A DNA stretch of 57,210 bases from an uncultured Planctomycetia bacterium (GTDB lineage: Bacteria > Omnitrophota > Gorgyraeia > 2-02-FULL-51-18), in assembly GCA_964497635.1 (NCBI GenBank), contig CAZCDB010000001.1:1-57210 (forward strand). The letters run 5' to 3'. Made by a program: the position numbers and the translations under genes. The notes below the pieces were generated by a model. That model did not search any database. It was not told where the DNA came from and was given only the letters and a program-made list of their open reading frames with translations. Position 1 is the stretch's first letter. Every line of letters starts with the position of its first letter. Positions 3-43,423 of the stretch are shown piece by piece.

Positions 3-3000
3 AAAAATTCACCACTGGATGGGTGGAGCTTACGGTTTCAGAACCAGCAGGGCAAACCCACTACGGTGCCTTTAAATAATCTCAATGGCTATGGGGATAC
101 ACCTCTTGAGGTTGATAGCGTTCTTGAGCTTGTAAGAACCAACGTCCCAGCCGGTTTTCTCCGTATTCAAAATAATACAAATCCTCGTGTGCCATTTGTC
201 GTGAGTGGTGATCCAGATGAGGTGATCCGTTGGGTGATTGGCTTGAGAATTTCAGCACCGGATACACTCATTTATGCTCCTCGTATCGGAATGAGTCCAA
301 TGTTCTTTGATGCGCCGTCAAGGCCGCTTGGAGAGATCCGCAGAACAGATACAGTTTTTGTTGATGAAAATGGCTTCCTCCATCTGATCGCTGATGCTCA
401 AAATGAAGAGTGGAAGCCAATTCTAATTGGTTATAAACGTGTCGATGTGTCAGACCTCCCAACCACCGCGATACCTGATGACCGTGGGGCTAGGCTATCT
501 TCTATTACCAAAGACATGGTCATTTCCTATGGAAAAGAAAGGCAGGAGCCAACGACCGTGAAAGTAACGGTGAAGATAGAGCTCCTAACAGCTGTGGCTG
601 CCCCGCCTAAATTTGAGCTTTTTTACAGAGTTTCAGGATTAGAAGATTTTCTATCGCTGGGCACGATAGAAAATCCTTCACCTGCAGACATGGGCGAGCT
701 TTTAAGCCAATTTGAAGGCACAAGATTTAACCCTTCTTCCTTACCTACACTTGAAGAAAAAATAGCCAAAATGATGAGGGATTTTAAAGTAGCGGTCAAT
801 TCCGGAGCGAGGTTGGCATTAACGTCGGATCTGGAAAATGCAGCCACCTTGGCTAGCGCGAATTTGTTTAGTGAATTCACTTTCAACGTCCCCGGTCAGG
901 GTTCTTTTACGATTTCTGAAAAAGGGGCCAATCTGATGGAGCTTTCGATGGACAAGACGGCGGATCTGCCGGCTCGGGCACTGATCAAGCGGCATGAGAC
1001 CGGGCATGTGGGGTCGTTTTTGATGGCGCCGTTTTCGGGGCGGCAGGTGCGGTATTTAAAGAAAACTGTGAGTGGCAGGGAAGTCACAATCGATCTTGGA
1101 AAACTGCCGGGAGCGGCTCCTTGGAAACCGGCTGGTCACGTTGGAGACGAGCCTTATGTACTGCATGGTTTTTTAAGAAATGCCCGCTGGACTTTGGAGC
1201 CGGGTTCTACGGATAGCTCCGCTACTTTTTCAGTGAAAAATAGCGACATTCCCGTTTCAATCACGGATATTGATGGCGCGGACATCCCCGAAATAAAAAC
1301 CTTGGCCGATATTTTCGGTGATCTTCAGTATCAAGTCACGTATCAGTGGGCGGATGGGAAGTTTGGGATTCTTCCGTCAGTGACCAATCTAGGCACGACG
1401 GAAGCCACCACGGAGCTTAATCACCACCTGACGTTGGATCTGGCGGACTCTGATGCGGGATTGAGCGAGTGGTCAGCGCAAATCGATGCGGTAAAATATC
1501 GTCGGATGAATGATAACAAGATGCCAAAACGCTCTCCCCTGGCGCGAGTGAGGAGCGGTGGAGAATATGATTTTAGAGAGCCTGTGGCTCTTGATCGCCC
1601 CATCGAGGTAGGTCTTGCTGCTTTGGAAGATACCGATGGCATTGTTGAGGGAAGATTTATTCATAAAGGTGGAGAAACCATCTCGCTTAGCTGGGACGCC
1701 GCTACTTTTCCGCAGACTCTTCTCTGGGCGCCCGTGGGACTCAGAGGATTTGAAGGCCGAGCCGGTTTCCAACCCAAAAGCTCTTCTCCCGGTGCCGCAG
1801 GTCTTGAAAAAGCCGGGATCAAAGACGCAAATTTACTTCATCTAAAACCCAACCAGACCATCACGGGAAAAATAGAGATTGGAAGAGCTTTGGTGACGGT
1901 TGCCGCTGCACGGCTATCCAGTGCTTCAGACTCAGAGCCTGAAATCCCTTCACTTGATGATCAGATTGAAGCGTGGAAGAAGAACCATGCTACAGCCCAT
2001 GCGGTATCTAGAATTTTGGTGAATGAAGATGAGAATATACCTCGGATGTTGTTAGAATTTGTAACGAAGAATGTTCTTGGACTAGAACCTAAGGAAGATT
2101 CTGATAAAGTTATTTTAGCCTTAAAATCAGAAGATGCTTGGGACGCTTTTCAAAGCGGATCATTCGACTTTATAGTCACGGACATTAATACAAAGTCGGA
2201 TATTAACGGTATCGATCTTATTCGTCATATCCGCGAGCAAGAGGCTCGTGATCAAGTTCAACAACCTGTCATGATTTTGGTGCAGAGCTCAACACTCAAG
2301 CCAGCGATGAAAGGGCTTGATCTCAAAGAGTTTGGGCCCGATACATTTTATGTTGAGAAGCCTGCGGGAGATGCGATCCAAAAACTATTTGCCGCCGATG
2401 TTGTTTCCGCTGTTACATTTGAAGCAAAGGATGTCTCCATCGGTCAAGTGAATGAAGTGATTGACCAAGCTATTGGCGCAGCCATTAAGTATGCCGATAA
2501 GAAGCAAATGACAGCGATCCGTGTCAATTTTAATGGAAATGAAATTGGGAGGCATACGAGACCATTTAATAAGCAGATACTGTCCAGCAGCGTTATCAAC
2601 CATATTTCCGATCATGTTCGGTCAACACGAGAAGTTTCAATCTATGACATTCATACGGAAAATGCCACGGTGGTGATTACTTCAAAACCTGAGAGCGAAA
2701 GGACTCCTAAGCCTAAAGAGGTGAGGCCAGATCTATGGACTCGAATCTCTAGGTTTGCCTCTAAACTTTGGAAGTCCGCCGGCGCGCGGTTGGTCGATAA
2801 AAAAACCCTGGTTCGATGGACATCTCTTTTGGACAACGAGCCGCTTTTTCATCGGTACTCTTCAGTTTGGAAAGCTCACGATGATTTGGAGGGCGCTCGT
2901 CAGAGACTATTTTCTTTGCTAAAGCCGGGCGAAGAATACGATCCGAATCTACGGGTAACATTAACACCTCTCACAAGCCCCAATGCTGCTATTTCCAATG

Positions 3001-7676: not shown

Positions 7677-7889
7677 ATGTCCCAAGTGCTTGTGTCGACC
7701 AAATACCAGGTGGTCATCCCCAAAGATGTTCGCCAGCAAATGGAGATACGTCCGGGTCAGAAGATGAGCTGTATCGCGATCGGAAATGTGATCCATCTGG
7801 TGCCCGCTAGACCCCTGTCAAGCCTGAGAGGTTTTATTAAACCGGTGTCGCTTAAGGATCTCAGGGAAAAGAAAGATAGGGTCTTGTGA
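7677..7889 (+). CDS. vapB: AbrB/MazE/SpoVT-fold antitoxin (VapB-like)
   Basis: 70 aa. The N-terminal motif KYQVVIPKDVRQQMEIRPGQKM is the typical swapped-hairpin AbrB-type DNA-binding motif. It overlaps the downstream PIN gene by 4 nt (GTGA). Confidence 0.85.
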   Translation: MSQVLVSTKYQVVIPKDVRQQMEIRPGQKMSCIAIGNVIHLVPARPLSSLRGFIKPVSLKDLREKKDRVL

Positions 7890-8275
7890 TCGTCGTCGAT
7901 TCCTCCGGCTGGATGCACTACTTTATGAACGGTGACTTGGCGGAATCCTACGCCCAGCATCTTTCGAAGCCCGATCGAGTATTGACGCCGACAGTTATAT
8001 TATATGAAGTCTTCAAAAAGATTCAGCGTGAGTACGGACGAGAAGAGGCCTCTGTGGCCGCGGCCGAGATTGAAAAGACACAACTTGTCCCGTTTTCTTC
8101 GCAGATGGCATATCACGCGGCCGACATTTCGTCTCAGTATCACCTAAGTCTGGCAGATTCCATGATCTACGCGACCGCTCATTTTTATGGCGCTAAACTT
8201 GTGACTAGTGACGCGGACTTTAAAGATCTGCCCAATGTCGTTTTTTTAAATCCAACAGAACCTGGTTTAGATTAA
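7886..8275 (+). CDS. vapC: PIN-domain ribonuclease toxin (VapC-like)
   Basis: 129 aa. IVVDSSGW (first acidic residue), LTPTVILYEV, LSLADSMIYATA and LVTSDADF give the PIN acidic quartet pattern. It is coupled to the upstream antitoxin. Confidence 0.85.
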   Translation: MIVVDSSGWMHYFMNGDLAESYAQHLSKPDRVLTPTVILYEVFKKIQREYGREEASVAAAEIEKTQLVPFSSQMAYHAADISSQYHLSLADSMIYATAHFYGAKLVTSDADFKDLPNVVFLNPTEPGLD

Positions 8276-8282
8276 AAAAATC

Positions 8283-41141: not shown

Positions 41142-41679
41142 CGGCAAAGTGATTGCTGCAGGGATTTATTTTTTCCTGCTAACGAGCGCATTGTCTTTTG
41201 CCGGTGAAAACAAGGAAAATCTAAACGGGCAGCAGAGGCTGCCCGTTTTTTCATCCAAACCGTCTTACCACGGTCTTTTTGATGAAGAGTTAATCGGGAT
41301 GAAGGATCTCTTCCGGCTTCTTTTTCAGGAAAAGAAAAAATTTTTGTTACTGGATGCGCGTGGAAAACAAAGTTATGACACGCTTCATCTCAAAGGAGCC
41401 AAGCTCCCGCTGGGTCATGATTTTTATTGGCAGGAAGATTTGTTTCGTAGGGGGATTGTCAAGACCGTCCTGGATCGAGACAAAGAGCTTGAGAAGGCCA
41501 TGAAGCGGTATCCCAAAGACACGGCGATTGTGACCTACTGCAACGATGATTGTCATGCCAGCGCGGTCCTTGTGCTGCAGTTGAAGCGTTTGGGTTTCAC
41601 CAATGTAAAAGCAATGATCGAGGGGATACAGACCTGGCAAAAAGAAGGTTATCCGGTCGCCTCAAGCGTTTCTGGGTAG
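41119..41679 (+). CDS. Periplasmic rhodanese-domain protein
   Basis: TTG start (alternative GTG at 41149). Signal peptide ...IAAGIYFFLLTSALSFA-GE. Rhodanese fold LLDARGKQSYDTLHLKGA ... YCNDDCHASA ... GIQTWQKEGYPV. Confidence 0.7.
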   Translation: MISWIKNNGKVIAAGIYFFLLTSALSFAGENKENLNGQQRLPVFSSKPSYHGLFDEELIGMKDLFRLLFQEKKKFLLLDARGKQSYDTLHLKGAKLPLGHDFYWQEDLFRRGIVKTVLDRDKELEKAMKRYPKDTAIVTYCNDDCHASAVLVLQLKRLGFTNVKAMIEGIQTWQKEGYPVASSVSG

Positions 41680-41714
41680 TGATGCCATAGGCTATGGTAC
41701 AATTCCTTTTTAGC

Positions 41715-41801
41715 GTGCCCGTAGCTTCCGCCTGATCGGAGATCAGGACGGATCCGTCCTCGCCCATAGGCGAGGCGGACAATTGATAAGGATTAGGGCA
41801 C
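41715..41801. repeat. Structured element E1: tRNA-Arg-like acceptor stem enclosing four-way-junction module M1
   Basis: GTGCCCGTAGCT (41715-41726) is identical to the first 12 nt of tRNA-Arg, and GGGCAC (41796-41801) can pair with it. Inside is closing stem TCCGC/GCGGA with hairpins CTGATC-GGA-GATCAG, GACGG-AT-CCGTC and CTCGCC-CATA-GGCGAG. Confidence 0.7.
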
Positions 41802-41821
41802 GACAATATTCAAATAGTCTT

Positions 41822-41895
41822 GTGCCCGTAGCTCAATTGGATAGAGCGCTTCCCTCCGAAGGAAGAGGTTGATGGTTCGACCCCATTCGGGCACA
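41822..41895 (+). tRNA. tRNA-Arg (anticodon CCG)
   Basis: Hand-folded cloverleaf: acceptor GTGCCCG/CGGGCAC, D arm GCTC-AATTGGATA-GAGC, anticodon arm CTTCC-CTCCGAA-GGAAG and T arm GATGG-TTCGACC-CCATT. No encoded CCA. Confidence 0.9.
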
Positions 41896-41905
41896 CGGTT
41901 TTAGC

Positions 41906-41934
41906 TTGGACCATCCTAGGTCTTTGGCTATAAT
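41906..41934 (+). promoter_or_regulatory. Near-consensus sigma70 promoter inside the tRNA island
   Basis: TTGGAC (41906-41911), 17-nt spacer, TATAAT (41929-41934). It would drive element E2 plus tRNA-Lys and downstream genes. Confidence 0.55.
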
Positions 41935-41957
41935 AACACCCTTTAGCATGCAAGGGC

Positions 41958-42101
41958 TTTTGCGCCGATAGCTCAGTTGGTAGAGGTCGCTAAGCCTCTG
42001 CTTAGCGACACTTCGCGCCGGCATTGATAGCCGGCTTGTCGCAGCTTCCGCCTGCTGCTTTTGCAGCAGGACGGACCCGTCCTCGTCTATGACGAGGCGG
42101 G
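41958..42101. repeat. Structured element E2: 28-nt copy of the tRNA-Lys 5' part, two perfect hairpins, and the second copy of module M1
   Basis: 41958-41985 is identical to 42143-42170 (leader TTTT, acceptor 5' strand and D arm). Hairpins GTCGCTAAG-CCTCTG-CTTAGCGAC (41986-42009) and GCCGGC-ATTGATA-GCCGGC (42017-42035). M1 copy at 42047-42101. Confidence 0.7.
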
Positions 42102-42146
42102 GACTCTAGACGTAGAACTAGGTTTTAGATTTAGGTAAAAGATTTT

Positions 42147-42219
<73 letters not shown>

Positions 42220-42220
42220 C

Positions 42221-42346
42221 AAATTTCGATTTTGAAGGCCCATCTGCTTCGTTGCGATGGCAAGTTGTTTGTGCGACGCTATTTCCATAGCGTCTCCGCA
42301 CAACTTGCCATCGCGCCTCGCATCTGAACCTTCAAAATCAAAATTT
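42221..42346. repeat. Structured element E3: ~126-nt long hairpin (family M2) directly 3' of tRNA-Lys
   Basis: Outer 18-bp stem AAATTTCGATTTTGAAGG / CCTTCAAAATCAAAATTT (1 mismatch). Perfect 15-bp inner stem GCGATGGCAAGTTGT / ACAACTTGCCATCGC. Apex GACGCT-ATTTCCAT-AGCGTC. The 31-nt core 42269-42299 is identical to 42853-42883. Confidence 0.75.
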
Positions 42347-42365
42347 GGAAATGACTAAGAAATAG

Positions 42366-42447
42366 GGGCGGATGGCGAAACTGGCAGACGCGTCAGCCTT
42401 AGGAGCTGATGGGGCAACCCTTGGAGGTTCGAGTCCTCTTCCGCCCA
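42366..42447 (+). tRNA. tRNA-Leu (anticodon UAG)
   Basis: Acceptor GGGCGGA/TCCGCCC, anticodon arm TCAGC-CTTAGGA-GCTGA, a long variable arm and T arm GGAGG-TTCGAGT-CCTCT. No encoded CCA. Confidence 0.9.
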
Positions 42448-42645
42448 TGATTTTAGTTGCCGAAGAGGACTCGAAGAGAGTTTCGTCGCCGTTGGTAAAA
42501 GTCGACTGTCCAGTGGACAGTCGACAATTCCTTCGACGAAACGAATGGCCGACCGGAGTCGAGCCGTCTAAGAGCGGAGCGACGTAGTCGCGTAGCGGGA
42601 AGTTTGGCGAGACGTAGGCGCCAAGTCCTCTTCCGCCCATGATTT
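42448..42645. repeat. Structured element E4: ~176-nt hairpin-rich insert ending in a 22-nt direct copy of the tRNA-Leu 3' end
   Basis: AGTCCTCTTCCGCCCATGATTT occurs at 42432-42453 (T arm, acceptor and 6 nt of trailer) and again at 42624-42645. Between them: an 11-bp perfect hairpin GTCGACTGTCC-AGT-GGACAGTCGAC (42501-42525), nested in TTTCGTCG/CGACGAAA, plus further hairpins at 42547-42565 and 42579-42591. Confidence 0.75.
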
Positions 42646-42727
42646 GCCCATTTCGTTGCAGGCGAGGCGCAGATCAGGTATATTACAGGCTAAGATTTTT
42701 TAGGATGAGTTGATTTAAAAGTTTCAA

Positions 42728-42803
42728 GCGGGAGTAACTCAGCGGCTAGAGTGCCACCTTGCCAAGGTGGACGTCGAGGGTTCGAATCCCTTCTCCCGCT
42801 CCA
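42728..42803 (+). tRNA. tRNA-Gly (anticodon GCC), with encoded CCA
   Basis: Acceptor GCGGGAG/CTCCCGC, D arm ACTC-AGCGGCTA-GAGT, anticodon arm CCACC-TTGCCAA-GGTGG, T arm GAGGG-TTCGAAT-CCCTT, then T-CCA. Confidence 0.9.
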
Positions 42804-42807
42804 TTTA

Positions 42808-42927
42808 TTTTTGTCGGAGCAGGCCCATCTACTTTGTTGCGGGCTCGTTCGCTTGTGCGACGCTATTTCCATAGCGTCTCCGCGCTCAGTCGCCCGCGTC
42901 GCGTATCTGGGCCTGCTGCGACAAAAA
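42808..42927. repeat. Structured element E5: ~120-nt long hairpin (family M2) directly 3' of tRNA-Gly
   Basis: Outer 20-bp stem TTTTTGTCGGAGCAGGCCCA / TGGGCCTGCTGCGACAAAAA (1 mismatch) and inner GCGGGC/GCCCGC. It has the same 31-nt apex core TTGTGCGACGCTATTTCCATAGCGTCTCCGC as E3. Confidence 0.75.
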
Positions 42928-42958
42928 TTAAAAAGAATTCTAAAAGGAAAGCTACTTA

Positions 42959-43423
42959 ATGAAAATCGTTGAGTTTTTGAACGAAAAAGCAATCACGGCC
43001 AATATTAAATCAACTAAAAAAGAAGAAGTCCTTCGAGAGCTTGTGGATATTTTGGCGAAAGCCGAAGGATTCAGAAATAAAGAAGAGCTGATCAAAGTTT
43101 TGATCAACCGCGAGAACCTGGGCAGCACAGGCATCGGCCAGGGAGTGGGGATTCCTCACGCAAAAACAAATGTCGTGAAGAAATTGGTGGCGGCTTTTGG
43201 GCTGTGTCCTCAAGGGGTTCATTTTGACGCGTTGGATGGCGAACCGGTTTATATCTTTTTTCTTTTAGTGGCTCCGGAAGATTCTGCAGGCCCGCATTTG
43301 AAGGGGCTTGCTCGCATCTCACGCCTTCTCAAGGACAAGTATTTCAGGGAGTCACTCAAGTCTCTCTCAGACGAAAAAGCCATTCTTAAATTGATTCGTG
43401 AGGAAGATGCTAAGAAACCCTAA
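42959..43423 (+). CDS. ptsN: PTS EIIA(Ntr)-type regulatory protein
   Basis: 154 aa. RENLGSTGIGQGVGIPHAK (phosphorylatable His context of the fructose/mannitol EIIA family) and FFLLVAP. Confidence 0.8.
   Translation: MKIVEFLNEKAITANIKSTKKEEVLRELVDILAKAEGFRNKEELIKVLINRENLGSTGIGQGVGIPHAKTNVVKKLVAAFGLCPQGVHFDALDGEPVYIFFLLVAPEDSAGPHLKGLARISRLLKDKYFRESLKSLSDEKAILKLIREEDAKKP

Follow-up and report, generated by a model that had tools for sequence, protein, structure and literature searches.

A small structured element behind a tRNA-Leu gene of an Omnitrophota bacterium is an intact copy of a widespread, undescribed non-coding family built like the RtT repeats of Escherichia coli

The RtT RNA of E. 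coli (Rfam RF00391; gene rttR), which corresponds to the 178-bp repeats of the tyrT-tyrV operon, lies directly downstream of a tRNA gene on the same strand, and these repeats have lacked an explanation for decades. RtT is described in the literature as processed from the tyrT transcript, and its mode of action is described as unknown. In the E. coli tyrT-tyrV locus, which was read directly in this study, each tRNA-Tyr end is followed by a linker of about 58 nt, the antisense segment GGGGAAGGAT (antisense of ATCCTTCCCC, in the tRNA 3' part), a structured body of roughly 100 nt and a sense copy of the tRNA 3' end, ATCCTTCCCCCACCACCA, and the units are repeated in tandem. The consensus structure given by Rfam closes the molecule with exactly this antisense:sense helix, and the number of RtT places varies from 1 to 10 per E. 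coli genome. Other systems share single traits with the locus described below. Transfer RNA genes are the classical landing sites of mobile DNA, and the att sites of tRNA-integrating genomic islands and prophages leave a direct repeat of the tRNA 3' part, for which the stretch from the T-loop to the 3' end is the classical sublocation of tyrosine-integrase sites. Folded single-strand recombination sites, such as integron attC and the CTX phage attP used by XerCD, are imperfect hairpins of 60-200 nt. MITEs, REPINs and IS200/IS605-derived palindromic elements are short, non-coding, hairpin-forming and present in many copies with the enzyme (if any) encoded elsewhere, and in IS200/IS605 elements an internal guide pairs with the flanking target.

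In this study, a stretch of 57,210 nucleotides from an Omnitrophota metagenome contig was analyzed (the window; ENA ERZ3430527 NODE_240; GCA_964497635.1, CAZCDB010000001.1). The source samples are ERZ3430525, ERZ3430527, ERZ3430528 and SRR7369907-13. A 1.28-kb non-coding island lies between a rhodanese gene and ptsN, and it holds tRNA-Arg(CCG), tRNA-Lys(CUU), tRNA-Leu(UAG) and tRNA-Gly(GCC). A first-pass annotation had reported that a 22-nt stretch of the tRNA-Leu 3' end is repeated behind a hairpin-packed insert of about 170 nt, and this observation was confirmed. The 22-mer occurs exactly twice in the window, no third site was found even with 3 mismatches allowed, and 100 shuffles of the sequence gave 0 matches. 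The hairpins are real, and the complementarity between the start of the insert and the downstream repeat was recovered as well (Table 1). However, the first-pass annotation missed that the same arm also pairs with the 3' part of the real tRNA, and it missed the close analogy to E. coli RtT. When 42459-42640 was folded as DNA, the energy was -42.2 kcal/mol with z = -4.2, and folding as RNA gave -80.6 kcal/mol. The 1.4-kb island is 100% and 99.93% identical in two other independent assemblies, none of its modules recurs elsewhere in the window, and a search with the Rfam models recognized only the four tRNAs. Two further points of the first-pass annotation were weaker: the 10-mer AGGCGAGGCG, said to be shared with another module of the island, is within chance expectation (by our estimate, about 1 such pair per 1.4 kb), and the resemblance of GCCCATTTCGTTGC to the 5' arm of the hairpin elements called E is plausible but gapped.

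Table 1. Positions in the window of the tRNA-Leu gene and of the parts of the element behind it (X, family named here; P1-P3, helices; R1, covariance model of the family)
Position	Strand	Feature	Basis
42366..42447	+	tRNA-Leu(UAG), the host gene; its T-loop, T-stem 3' strand and acceptor 3' strand are what the element copies	ARAGORN; Rfam tRNA, 54.2 bits
42428-42444 / 42459-42475		Pairing of the tRNA 3' part with the antisense arm, 17 nt, 94%	Inverted-repeat search
42432..42453	+	Direct repeat copy 1, AGTCCTCTTCCGCCCATGATTT: A58 of the T-loop to the discriminator (the last 16 nt of the tRNA) plus 6 nt of trailer, TGATTT; part of the functional tRNA	Exact 22-mer, 2 sites, 0 expected
42448..42458	+	Linker t1 between the tRNA end and the antisense arm; not conserved in the family, where the element usually begins 3-30 nt after the tRNA end	Window sequence; family positions
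42459..42475	+	Antisense arm b', GCCGAAGAGGACTCGAA: reverse complement of the tRNA-Leu T-loop, T-stem 3' strand and part of the acceptor 3' strand; 5' strand of helix P1	Inverted repeats; family-wide match to the element's own tRNA
42459-42471 / 42624-42636		Pairing of the antisense arm with repeat copy 2, 13 nt with one mismatch; within it GAAGAGGACT (42462-42471) is complementary to 42624-42633	Inverted-repeat search
42461..42639	+	Full-length match to R1 (element X)	84.5 bits, E about 6e-18, model positions 1-136 of 136
42471..42480	+	Conserved junction TCGAAGAGAG (family consensus TYGAAGRGAG)	Family alignments
42480..42542	+	Helix P2 (9-bp stem 42480-42488 / 42534-42542) enclosing the perfect hairpin 42501-42525; this subtype (AAAAG-hairpin-AATTCC) is shared with loci L047 (tRNA-Arg) and L037 (tRNA-Lys)	Inverted repeats, fold, covariation
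42501-42512 / 42514-42525		Perfect 12-nt palindrome	Inverted repeats, fold
42543..42622	+	GAAT, then helix P3: GGCCGACC (42547-42554, with C and A bulged) pairs with GGCGCC (42617-42622) and encloses a variable hairpin region	Fold, covariation; P3 is 99.6% paired in 118 distinct copies
about 42579-42591		5-bp hairpin	Inverted repeats, fold
42624..42645	+	Direct repeat copy 2: sense copy of the tRNA-Leu 3' part and 3' strand of P1; no tRNA body precedes it	Exact 22-mer; inverted repeats; in the family this copy runs from C56 to the 3' end of the gene
42646..42680	+	35 nt after the repeat that are absent from relatives; GCCCATTTCGTTGC resembles the 5' arm of the E hairpin elements; probably a remnant of another element, not part of X	Inverted repeats; comparison with relatives; locus L019 has an E 5' arm after its X copy

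The comparison of the tRNA-Leu locus among related genomes had been proposed beforehand as the test that would separate an insertion from a vertically conserved spacer, and its outcome favors an insertion. The protein PtsN is 82-95% identical in many Omnitrophota, and the tRNA island in front of its gene is conserved. In the closest assembled relatives (loci are numbered here with the prefix L), the spacer between tRNA-Leu and tRNA-Gly is 45 nt in L011, 30 nt in L014-L017 and 51 nt in L018, compared with 280 nt in the window. Thus, empty sites exist in L011, which keeps the trailer TGATTT, and in L014-L017, whereas L018 keeps the linker and the first 7 nt of the antisense arm (TTTTAGATGCGGAAG) but lacks the rest, so it is a deletion remnant. 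The second part of the same test was the existence of a larger cognate element with a recombinase, and none was found. Three scans of a viral collection, with the 22-mer and with two body patterns, gave nothing or two chance hits inside coding regions, and no integrase, transposase, reverse transcriptase or HUH protein is encoded among the genes of the 57-kb contig. In addition, 440 ORFs within 3 kb of copies of the element were clustered, and only syntenic housekeeping genes recurred; one family of HTH ORFs turned out to belong to group I introns in tRNA genes.

The insert belongs to a family, which was designated X. The same arrangement was found behind tRNA-Gly in L019, a 1.59-Mb Omnitrophota contig, where the antisense segment matches the tRNA-Gly T-arm, the motifs GGACTCGAAGAGAG and CGAATGSCCGAC are shared, and a direct copy of the tRNA-Gly 3' end is present. 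A scan of 80 ptsN loci from GTDB species revealed about 25 further copies behind tRNA-Leu, Lys, Arg(UCG) and Gly, and a covariance model (R1) found 28 copies in these loci, all on the tRNA strand. The window copy was itself in the seed alignment of R1; however, 100 or more independent metagenome copies score 47-95 bits. A pattern scan of JGI metagenomes returned at least 120 stretches, and R1 confirmed 114 copies in 100 of these loci, while about 10 pattern hits inside coding regions were chance matches that R1 does not support. Altogether, more than 120 copies were found in Omnitrophota genomes and in metagenomes. The taxonomic range of the metagenome copies was not settled, as only one neighboring protein carried a name (Omnitrophica WOR_2). 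Of 125 curated copies of 108-233 nt, 106 have a same-strand tRNA or tmRNA ending upstream, mostly 3-30 nt away, and at least 32 different anticodons are represented; one copy follows a tmRNA, and some follow tRNA genes that contain group I introns, although no group I intron was found in X itself. Literature searches for a description of such elements in Omnitrophota or elsewhere found none, and in one paper the passage on RtT had been removed from the latest version. A 2026 preprint reports 176 complete Omnitrophota genomes.

The copies share the order antisense arm b', TYGAAGRGAG, P2 (with a variable tip that often carries the 11-nt loop GACGRNNAGGA), GRRT, P3 (GGC[C]G[A]CC paired with GGCGCC and enclosing a variable hairpin), RA and sense copy b. 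The antisense arm is the Watson-Crick antisense of the T-loop, the T-stem 3' strand and part of the acceptor 3' strand of the host tRNA, and it matches its own tRNA over a median of 10 nt (up to 21), compared with 5 nt for other tRNA types, which is the universal T-loop core. The sense copy starts at C56 of the T-loop in nearly all copies and ends 0-2 nt after the end of the gene, so that the repeat in the window (A58 to +6) is a slightly shifted version of this rule. Moreover, the sense copy includes CCA in 39 of 45 cases in which the gene encodes it and in 1 of 49 cases in which it does not, which indicates that the copy comes from the gene and not from mature tRNA. The window copy fulfills these features, since its antisense arm starts 11 nt after tRNA-Leu on the same strand, and the window coordinates of P1, P2 and P3, which come from the model alignment, agree with the minimum-energy fold.

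The helices of the family are supported by strong covariation. In 118 distinct copies, 95.1% of cells pair, compared with 36-42% when the partners are slid; 14 of 19 pairs show double changes, and there are 348 double-change cells against 90 in shuffles, with 0 of 500 shuffles reaching the observed value. The alignment was fitted to the model, and these numbers therefore lean towards the structure, but the slid controls and an RNAalifold analysis of a MAFFT-based alignment agree with them, and covariation was also scored on a smaller set. In P2 and P3, G·T pairs make up 13 of 1386 cells (0.9%), and in P1 they make up 1.6%, with A·C mismatches as frequent, whereas in the acceptor and T stems of tRNAs from the same loci G·U is 84 of 1632 cells (5.1%) and A·C is 0.5%. 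These data suggest that the helices behave like strand-symmetric DNA inverted repeats, or like repeats kept perfect by a copying process, rather than like typical RNA helices, although this is evidence and not proof.

Copy number and sequence vary among loci. Tandem arrays of identical units occur in L105 and L199, and further arrays occur in L113, L128, L144 and L211. Remnants, found in L021, at the end of the L199 array and in L018, retain the 5' part, that is, the linker, the antisense arm and the first about 10 nt of the body (for L018, as described above). Bodies can be nearly identical behind different tRNAs while the arms differ, as in L028 Lys/Leu (96%), L199 Leu(CAA) and L125 Trp (95%) and L124 Thr and L146 Met (89%), and in L201 only the 3' half is shared, a signature of gene conversion. 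The border between the shared body and the tRNA-specific arm lies inside T-loop positions 56-58 on both sides. In L037, the antisense arm pairs perfectly with the functional tRNA (19 of 19), while the downstream copy has diverged.

Despite the common design, X and RtT show no detectable homology. The RF00391 model gave no hit at E up to 5 in positions 41300-43300 of the window and none at E up to 10 in 11 X-bearing loci, in which only tRNAs and no ribozyme were recognized by Rfam, while in the same search it scored 133-138 bits on the E. coli units (gathering score, 45 bits), and R1 gave only 4-5 bits on the RtT units. The internal architecture is a nested multiloop in RtT and the three-way junction P1/P2/P3 in X, and RtT follows tRNA-Tyr in the E. 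coli locus examined here. A second unrelated body, family Y in L085, L092 and L098, uses the same arms, so the design is more general than any one sequence family. Like the att sites of tRNA-integrating islands, X keeps an intact tRNA on one side and a partial copy on the other and also targets a tmRNA, but the bracketed DNA of 0.1-0.2 kb holds no integrase or any ORF, its interior is a conserved structured module, an antisense copy of the att core lies next to it, and the same body occurs with dozens of different tRNA cores. With attC and CTX attP, X shares the size, stems that covary as Watson-Crick pairs, conserved bulged bases (C and A in P3) and tandem arrays, and the order b - linker - b' - body - b is, by our inference, what a single-strand exchange of a folded hairpin with a duplex target would leave. 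However, there are no R''/R' core sites (RYYYAAC / GTTRRRY), as the hairpin base is the tRNA-derived sequence (GGACTCGAA / AGTCC), no intI or xer-type gene and no cassette ORFs are nearby, where the genes are housekeeping genes, and the stem sequence copies the target rather than being a fixed protein site; none of this was assayed biochemically. Compared with MITEs, REPINs and IS200/IS605-derived elements, the inverted arms of X are derived from the target and differ from copy to copy, the location is strictly behind tRNA genes in one orientation, no partner transposase was identified, and the repeat equals the tRNA segment from C56 to the gene end (typically 15-26 nt) rather than a target-site duplication of fixed length.

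The interpretation offered by the first-pass annotation was supported only in part. The geometry, the insertion relative to close relatives and the lack of a nearby recombinase hold, and of the options it offered (a decayed integrative element, a miniature element mobilized in trans or a recombination hotspot) the miniature element is closest to the evidence. The decayed integrative element is not supported, because the insert is a complete, conserved member of a family with covarying helices, and the att scar is not supported, because the repeat is a built-in end of the family members.

What the analysis itself demonstrates is that 42459-42645 is one complete copy of a conserved, structured and dispensable module that is tied to tRNA 3' ends with arms matched to the host, is present or absent among close relatives, forms arrays and 5'-retaining remnants, exchanges body segments, has almost pure Watson-Crick helices and has colonised most tRNA species; how the element moves and what it does are inferences. 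The inference favored here, which is held to be about as likely as not, is that X is a selfish, non-autonomous DNA module. In this view, it would be joined to the gene within the T-loop (C56-A58) as a unit of b, linker, b' and body, after which the tRNA would use the element-proximal 3' end and the old 3' end would be displaced downstream, where it can decay. In the free or single-stranded form, b and b' would make a hairpin that copies the duplex sequence of the target next to the conserved three-way junction, and an unidentified trans-acting enzyme would recognize this. Copy number would change by unequal recombination between the two b copies, and bodies would be homogenized by gene conversion. 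Furthermore, the element would be read through with tRNA-Leu and tRNA-Gly, because no + strand terminator lies in the island, and it is probably trimmed out by tRNA-processing enzymes, as is reported for E. coli RtT, because P1 plus the discriminator mimics an acceptor/T-stem minihelix, which would make it harmless to the host tRNA; transcript data were not available for this locus. The family membership, the strict position and strand, the matched arms, the covarying structure, the DNA-type pairing, the repeat boundaries, the empty sites, the arrays, the bodies shared between different tRNAs, the intact antisense arm of L037, the lack of a + strand terminator in the island and the same design in E. 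coli RtT are in favor of this view. On the other hand, no enzyme was found in the window or recurring beside copies. An empty allele would read GGTTCGAGTCCTCTTCCGCCCATGATTTGCCC, and a circle junction would join GGCGCCA to AGTCC...TGATTTTAGTTGCC. No free or circular form and no autonomous version were seen. Near-identical bodies behind different tRNAs can be explained by gene conversion of the body alone, so recent re-targeting is not proven, and how both arms are re-specified for a new tRNA is unexplained. Moreover, at least two other families with unrelated bodies (Y and RtT) share the antisense-plus-sense design, which fits a general host process or an RNA-level function better than several separate enzyme-less mobile elements; the conserved unpaired motifs (GAAGRGAG, GACGRNNAGGA and GRRT) would equally suit a functional RNA, and the X copy of the window is old enough to be shared, as a remnant, with L018.

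The main rival, which is possible but less likely, is that X is mainly a functional RNA module of tRNA operons, as has been proposed for RtT. In that case, it would be co-transcribed with the tRNA, RNase P and 3'-end enzymes would release it by virtue of the closing helix that mimics the minihelix, the conserved junction and loops would bind a protein or act in tRNA maturation or a stress response, and the direct repeat would exist because the RNA needs a tRNA-like 3' end. The design shared with RtT, the repeat that ends at the tRNA gene end and includes CCA when it is encoded, the conserved unpaired motifs and loop, the strict strand and position, the lack of a terminator between the tRNA and X and the use of the same closing helix by unrelated bodies are consistent with this possibility. 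However, the helices lack the G·U tolerance of RNA, the element is absent from close relatives and occupies different tRNAs in different species, the tandem arrays and truncated remnants look like selfish DNA, processing would not require a match to the neighboring tRNA, and in L037 the 3' copy has decayed while the antisense arm is intact.

A bolder possibility, which is considered unlikely but should not be excluded, is that X, and perhaps RtT, would be a new kind of mobile DNA, namely a single-strand-foldable module of 0.1-0.2 kb with no gene of its own that integrates into the T-loop of essentially any tRNA or tmRNA gene. The target choice would be set by the hairpin of antisense arm and tRNA 3'-end copy, which reproduces the target duplex next to a conserved three-way junction recognized by a host or unlinked enzyme, and in effect this would be nucleic-acid-programmed, tRNA-restoring integration.

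A local origin without any mobile element, by partial duplication of the tRNA 3' end and template switching at the palindromic T-loop core (TTCGAA) in a recombination-prone tRNA cluster, with gene conversion accounting for similar bodies elsewhere, is more doubtful still. The junctions do lie inside the T-loop palindrome on both sides, perfect Watson-Crick arms are what quasi-palindrome template switching produces, gene-conversion mosaics occur, and the island holds several other partial tRNA duplications. Nevertheless, local events cannot create the same body of about 90 nt, with the same conserved motifs, behind tRNAs with at least 32 anticodons on many contigs, and fold-back or template-switch insertion, like a long target-site duplication, was rejected as the general mechanism because the repeat stops at the tRNA end in most copies instead of running through the linker. 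Several other readings were also tested. A retro-origin from mature tRNA (a stop at m1A58 or a tRF-3-like copy) was rejected by the distribution of CCA. The antisense arm as a relic of the acceptor and T-stem 5' strands of a degenerate second tRNA is disfavored, because the arm is the Watson-Crick complement of the 3' strand at 6 of 7 tRNA G·U sites and includes the complement of T-loop positions 54-60. A small peptide from the conserved RTG GCC GAC was rejected because the reading frames stop after 4-19 codons at different places, and the junction sequences do not fit a hammerhead-like core.

That the two 22-mers are the attL and attR of a once larger prophage or island whose interior, including the integrase, was deleted, leaving 170 nt of random leftovers, is very unlikely and already contradicted; although the repeat has the classical att sublocation and relatives carry larger insertions in this island (Fic in L015, IS1595 in L017), the interior is a full-length match to a conserved, covarying family, the size is constant at 108-233 nt, no copy holds an ORF, and the viral collection has no match for the att core or the body. 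A chance repeat or an assembly artefact, for which only the general risk of mis-assembly at repeats and the breaks of Logan unitigs inside this island could be cited, is refuted by the shuffles, the agreement of three independent assemblies and the more than 120 homologous copies elsewhere.

In conclusion, this locus shows that the RtT design, an antisense plus a sense copy of the tRNA 3' part closing a structured body, is not an enterobacterial oddity but is used by an abundant, sequence-unrelated family behind tRNAs with more than 30 anticodons and a tmRNA in Omnitrophota and in many metagenomes. The elements also break short-read assemblies, and many contigs end inside this island. Annotators should be aware that partial tRNA 3' ends behind tRNA genes need not mark lost prophages. 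The copies with strong covariation now provide a large comparative data set for asking what such elements do and how they spread, and if the arms really programme the target, this would be a new principle of site selection.

Further structured modules were found in the same island and in the loci compared with it, which carry L numbers; their positions are listed in the table. In the window, the exact 28-nt copy of TTTT plus the first 24 nt of tRNA-Lys was followed by two hairpins, the first with a 10-bp stem and a CTCT loop and the second with a 6-bp stem and an ATTGATA loop. This segment was 94% conserved in the relatives L014-L017, with two compensatory pair changes. Moreover, the same design was observed with a tRNA-Gly 5' part in L028 and with a tRNA-Leu 5' part in L037, and it looks like a second family, one that duplicates tRNA 5' parts upstream of the gene. 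In addition, the island contained two copies of a cloverleaf-like module, with a closing stem CCGCC/GGCGG and three hairpins. The first of these copies was preceded by a 12-nt copy of the tRNA-Arg 5' end (GTGCCCGTAGCT), and L021 was found to have a related piece upstream of its tRNA-Arg.

The two long-hairpin elements of roughly 128 nt share an exact 31-nt core (TTGTGCGACGCTATTTCCATAGCGTCTCCGC), whereas their outer stems differ while staying paired. These elements were absent from L011 and L014, and related copies occurred in L019, L028 and L034. They seem to be inserted into a T-run/A-run. Furthermore, another family with a different body was found to have the same logic as family X, the small structured elements behind tRNA genes, in that it is opened by an antisense copy of the whole T-arm (GAGACTCGAACTCC) and closed by a sense copy of the T-arm plus acceptor 3' strand. 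In E. coli K-12 (L225), the spacer between tyrT and tyrV is itself one RtT unit, with an antisense arm and a tRNA-Tyr 3' copy, and the two tRNA-Tyr genes are therefore separated by the same kind of element that follows tyrV.

Positions of additional features in the window and in the compared loci
Locus	Position	Feature
window	41958-42046	copy of the tRNA-Lys 5' part followed by two hairpins
L028	about 2600	same design with a tRNA-Gly 5' part
L037	about 2306	same design with a tRNA-Leu 5' part
window	41716-41779	cloverleaf-like module, first copy
window	42036-42100	cloverleaf-like module, second copy
window	42220-42347	long-hairpin element directly after tRNA-Lys
window	42804-42931	long-hairpin element directly after tRNA-Gly
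L019	5555-5680	copy related to the long-hairpin elements
L028		copy related to the long-hairpin elements
L034		copy related to the long-hairpin elements
L085	2327-2470	family with a different body (tRNA-Arg)
L092	2410-2572	family with a different body (tRNA-Arg)
L098	1263-1410	family with a different body (tRNA-Arg)
L077		family with a different body (tRNA-Gly)
L026	2339-2960	extra tRNA-Gly copies interrupted inside the T-loop
L151	about 2504-2617 (- strand)	tRNA-Arg(UCG) gene with an insert in the D-arm
L161	12575-12814	group I intron in a tRNA gene
L107	7452-7644	group I intron in a tRNA gene
L216	6100-6359	group I intron in a tRNA gene
L041	2680-2890	gene or remnant of the 23S rRNA intervening-sequence protein family
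L047	about 1000-1450	gene or remnant of the same family
L028	about 2450-2600	gene or remnant of the same family
L015	370-3300	larger insertion in the same island
L015	1620-1657	second partial tRNA-Arg 5' half
L017	269-1165	larger insertion in the same island
window	7700-8280 (from L226 6459-7057)	MazE-like antitoxin / PIN-domain toxin pair
L225 (E. coli K-12)	1287066-1287622	tyrT-tyrV locus, its spacer one RtT unit

Interrupted tRNA genes were also observed. The extra tRNA-Gly copies of L026 have the arrangement GGGTTCG, two hairpins, GAGTCCC, and one of them is followed by a GIY-YIG nuclease ORF (Pfam E = 5.9e-11). The insert in the tRNA-Arg(UCG) gene of L151 is 32 nt long and lies right after TAGCT; this gene was missed by ARAGORN and scored only 34.9 bits with Rfam. 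Moreover, the group I introns (RF00028, 60-83 bits) were detected in tRNA genes of the metagenome contigs L161, L107 and L216, with HTH ORFs of roughly 230 aa nearby that carry a LAGLIDADG-like motif not recognised by Pfam. X elements follow these intron-bearing tRNAs too.

Larger features were found as well. In the window, the toxin-antitoxin pair follows the 2503-aa ORF at the start of the contig. In some relatives, the genes or remnants of the 23S rRNA intervening-sequence protein family (PF05635, E = 1.4e-16) sit in the tRNA-Leu/tRNA-Gly spacer. In addition, the same island holds larger insertions in relatives, comprising a Fic-domain gene, small ORFs and the second partial tRNA-Arg 5' half in L015, and an IS1595 transposase in L017. 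The tRNA island is a general insertion hotspot.
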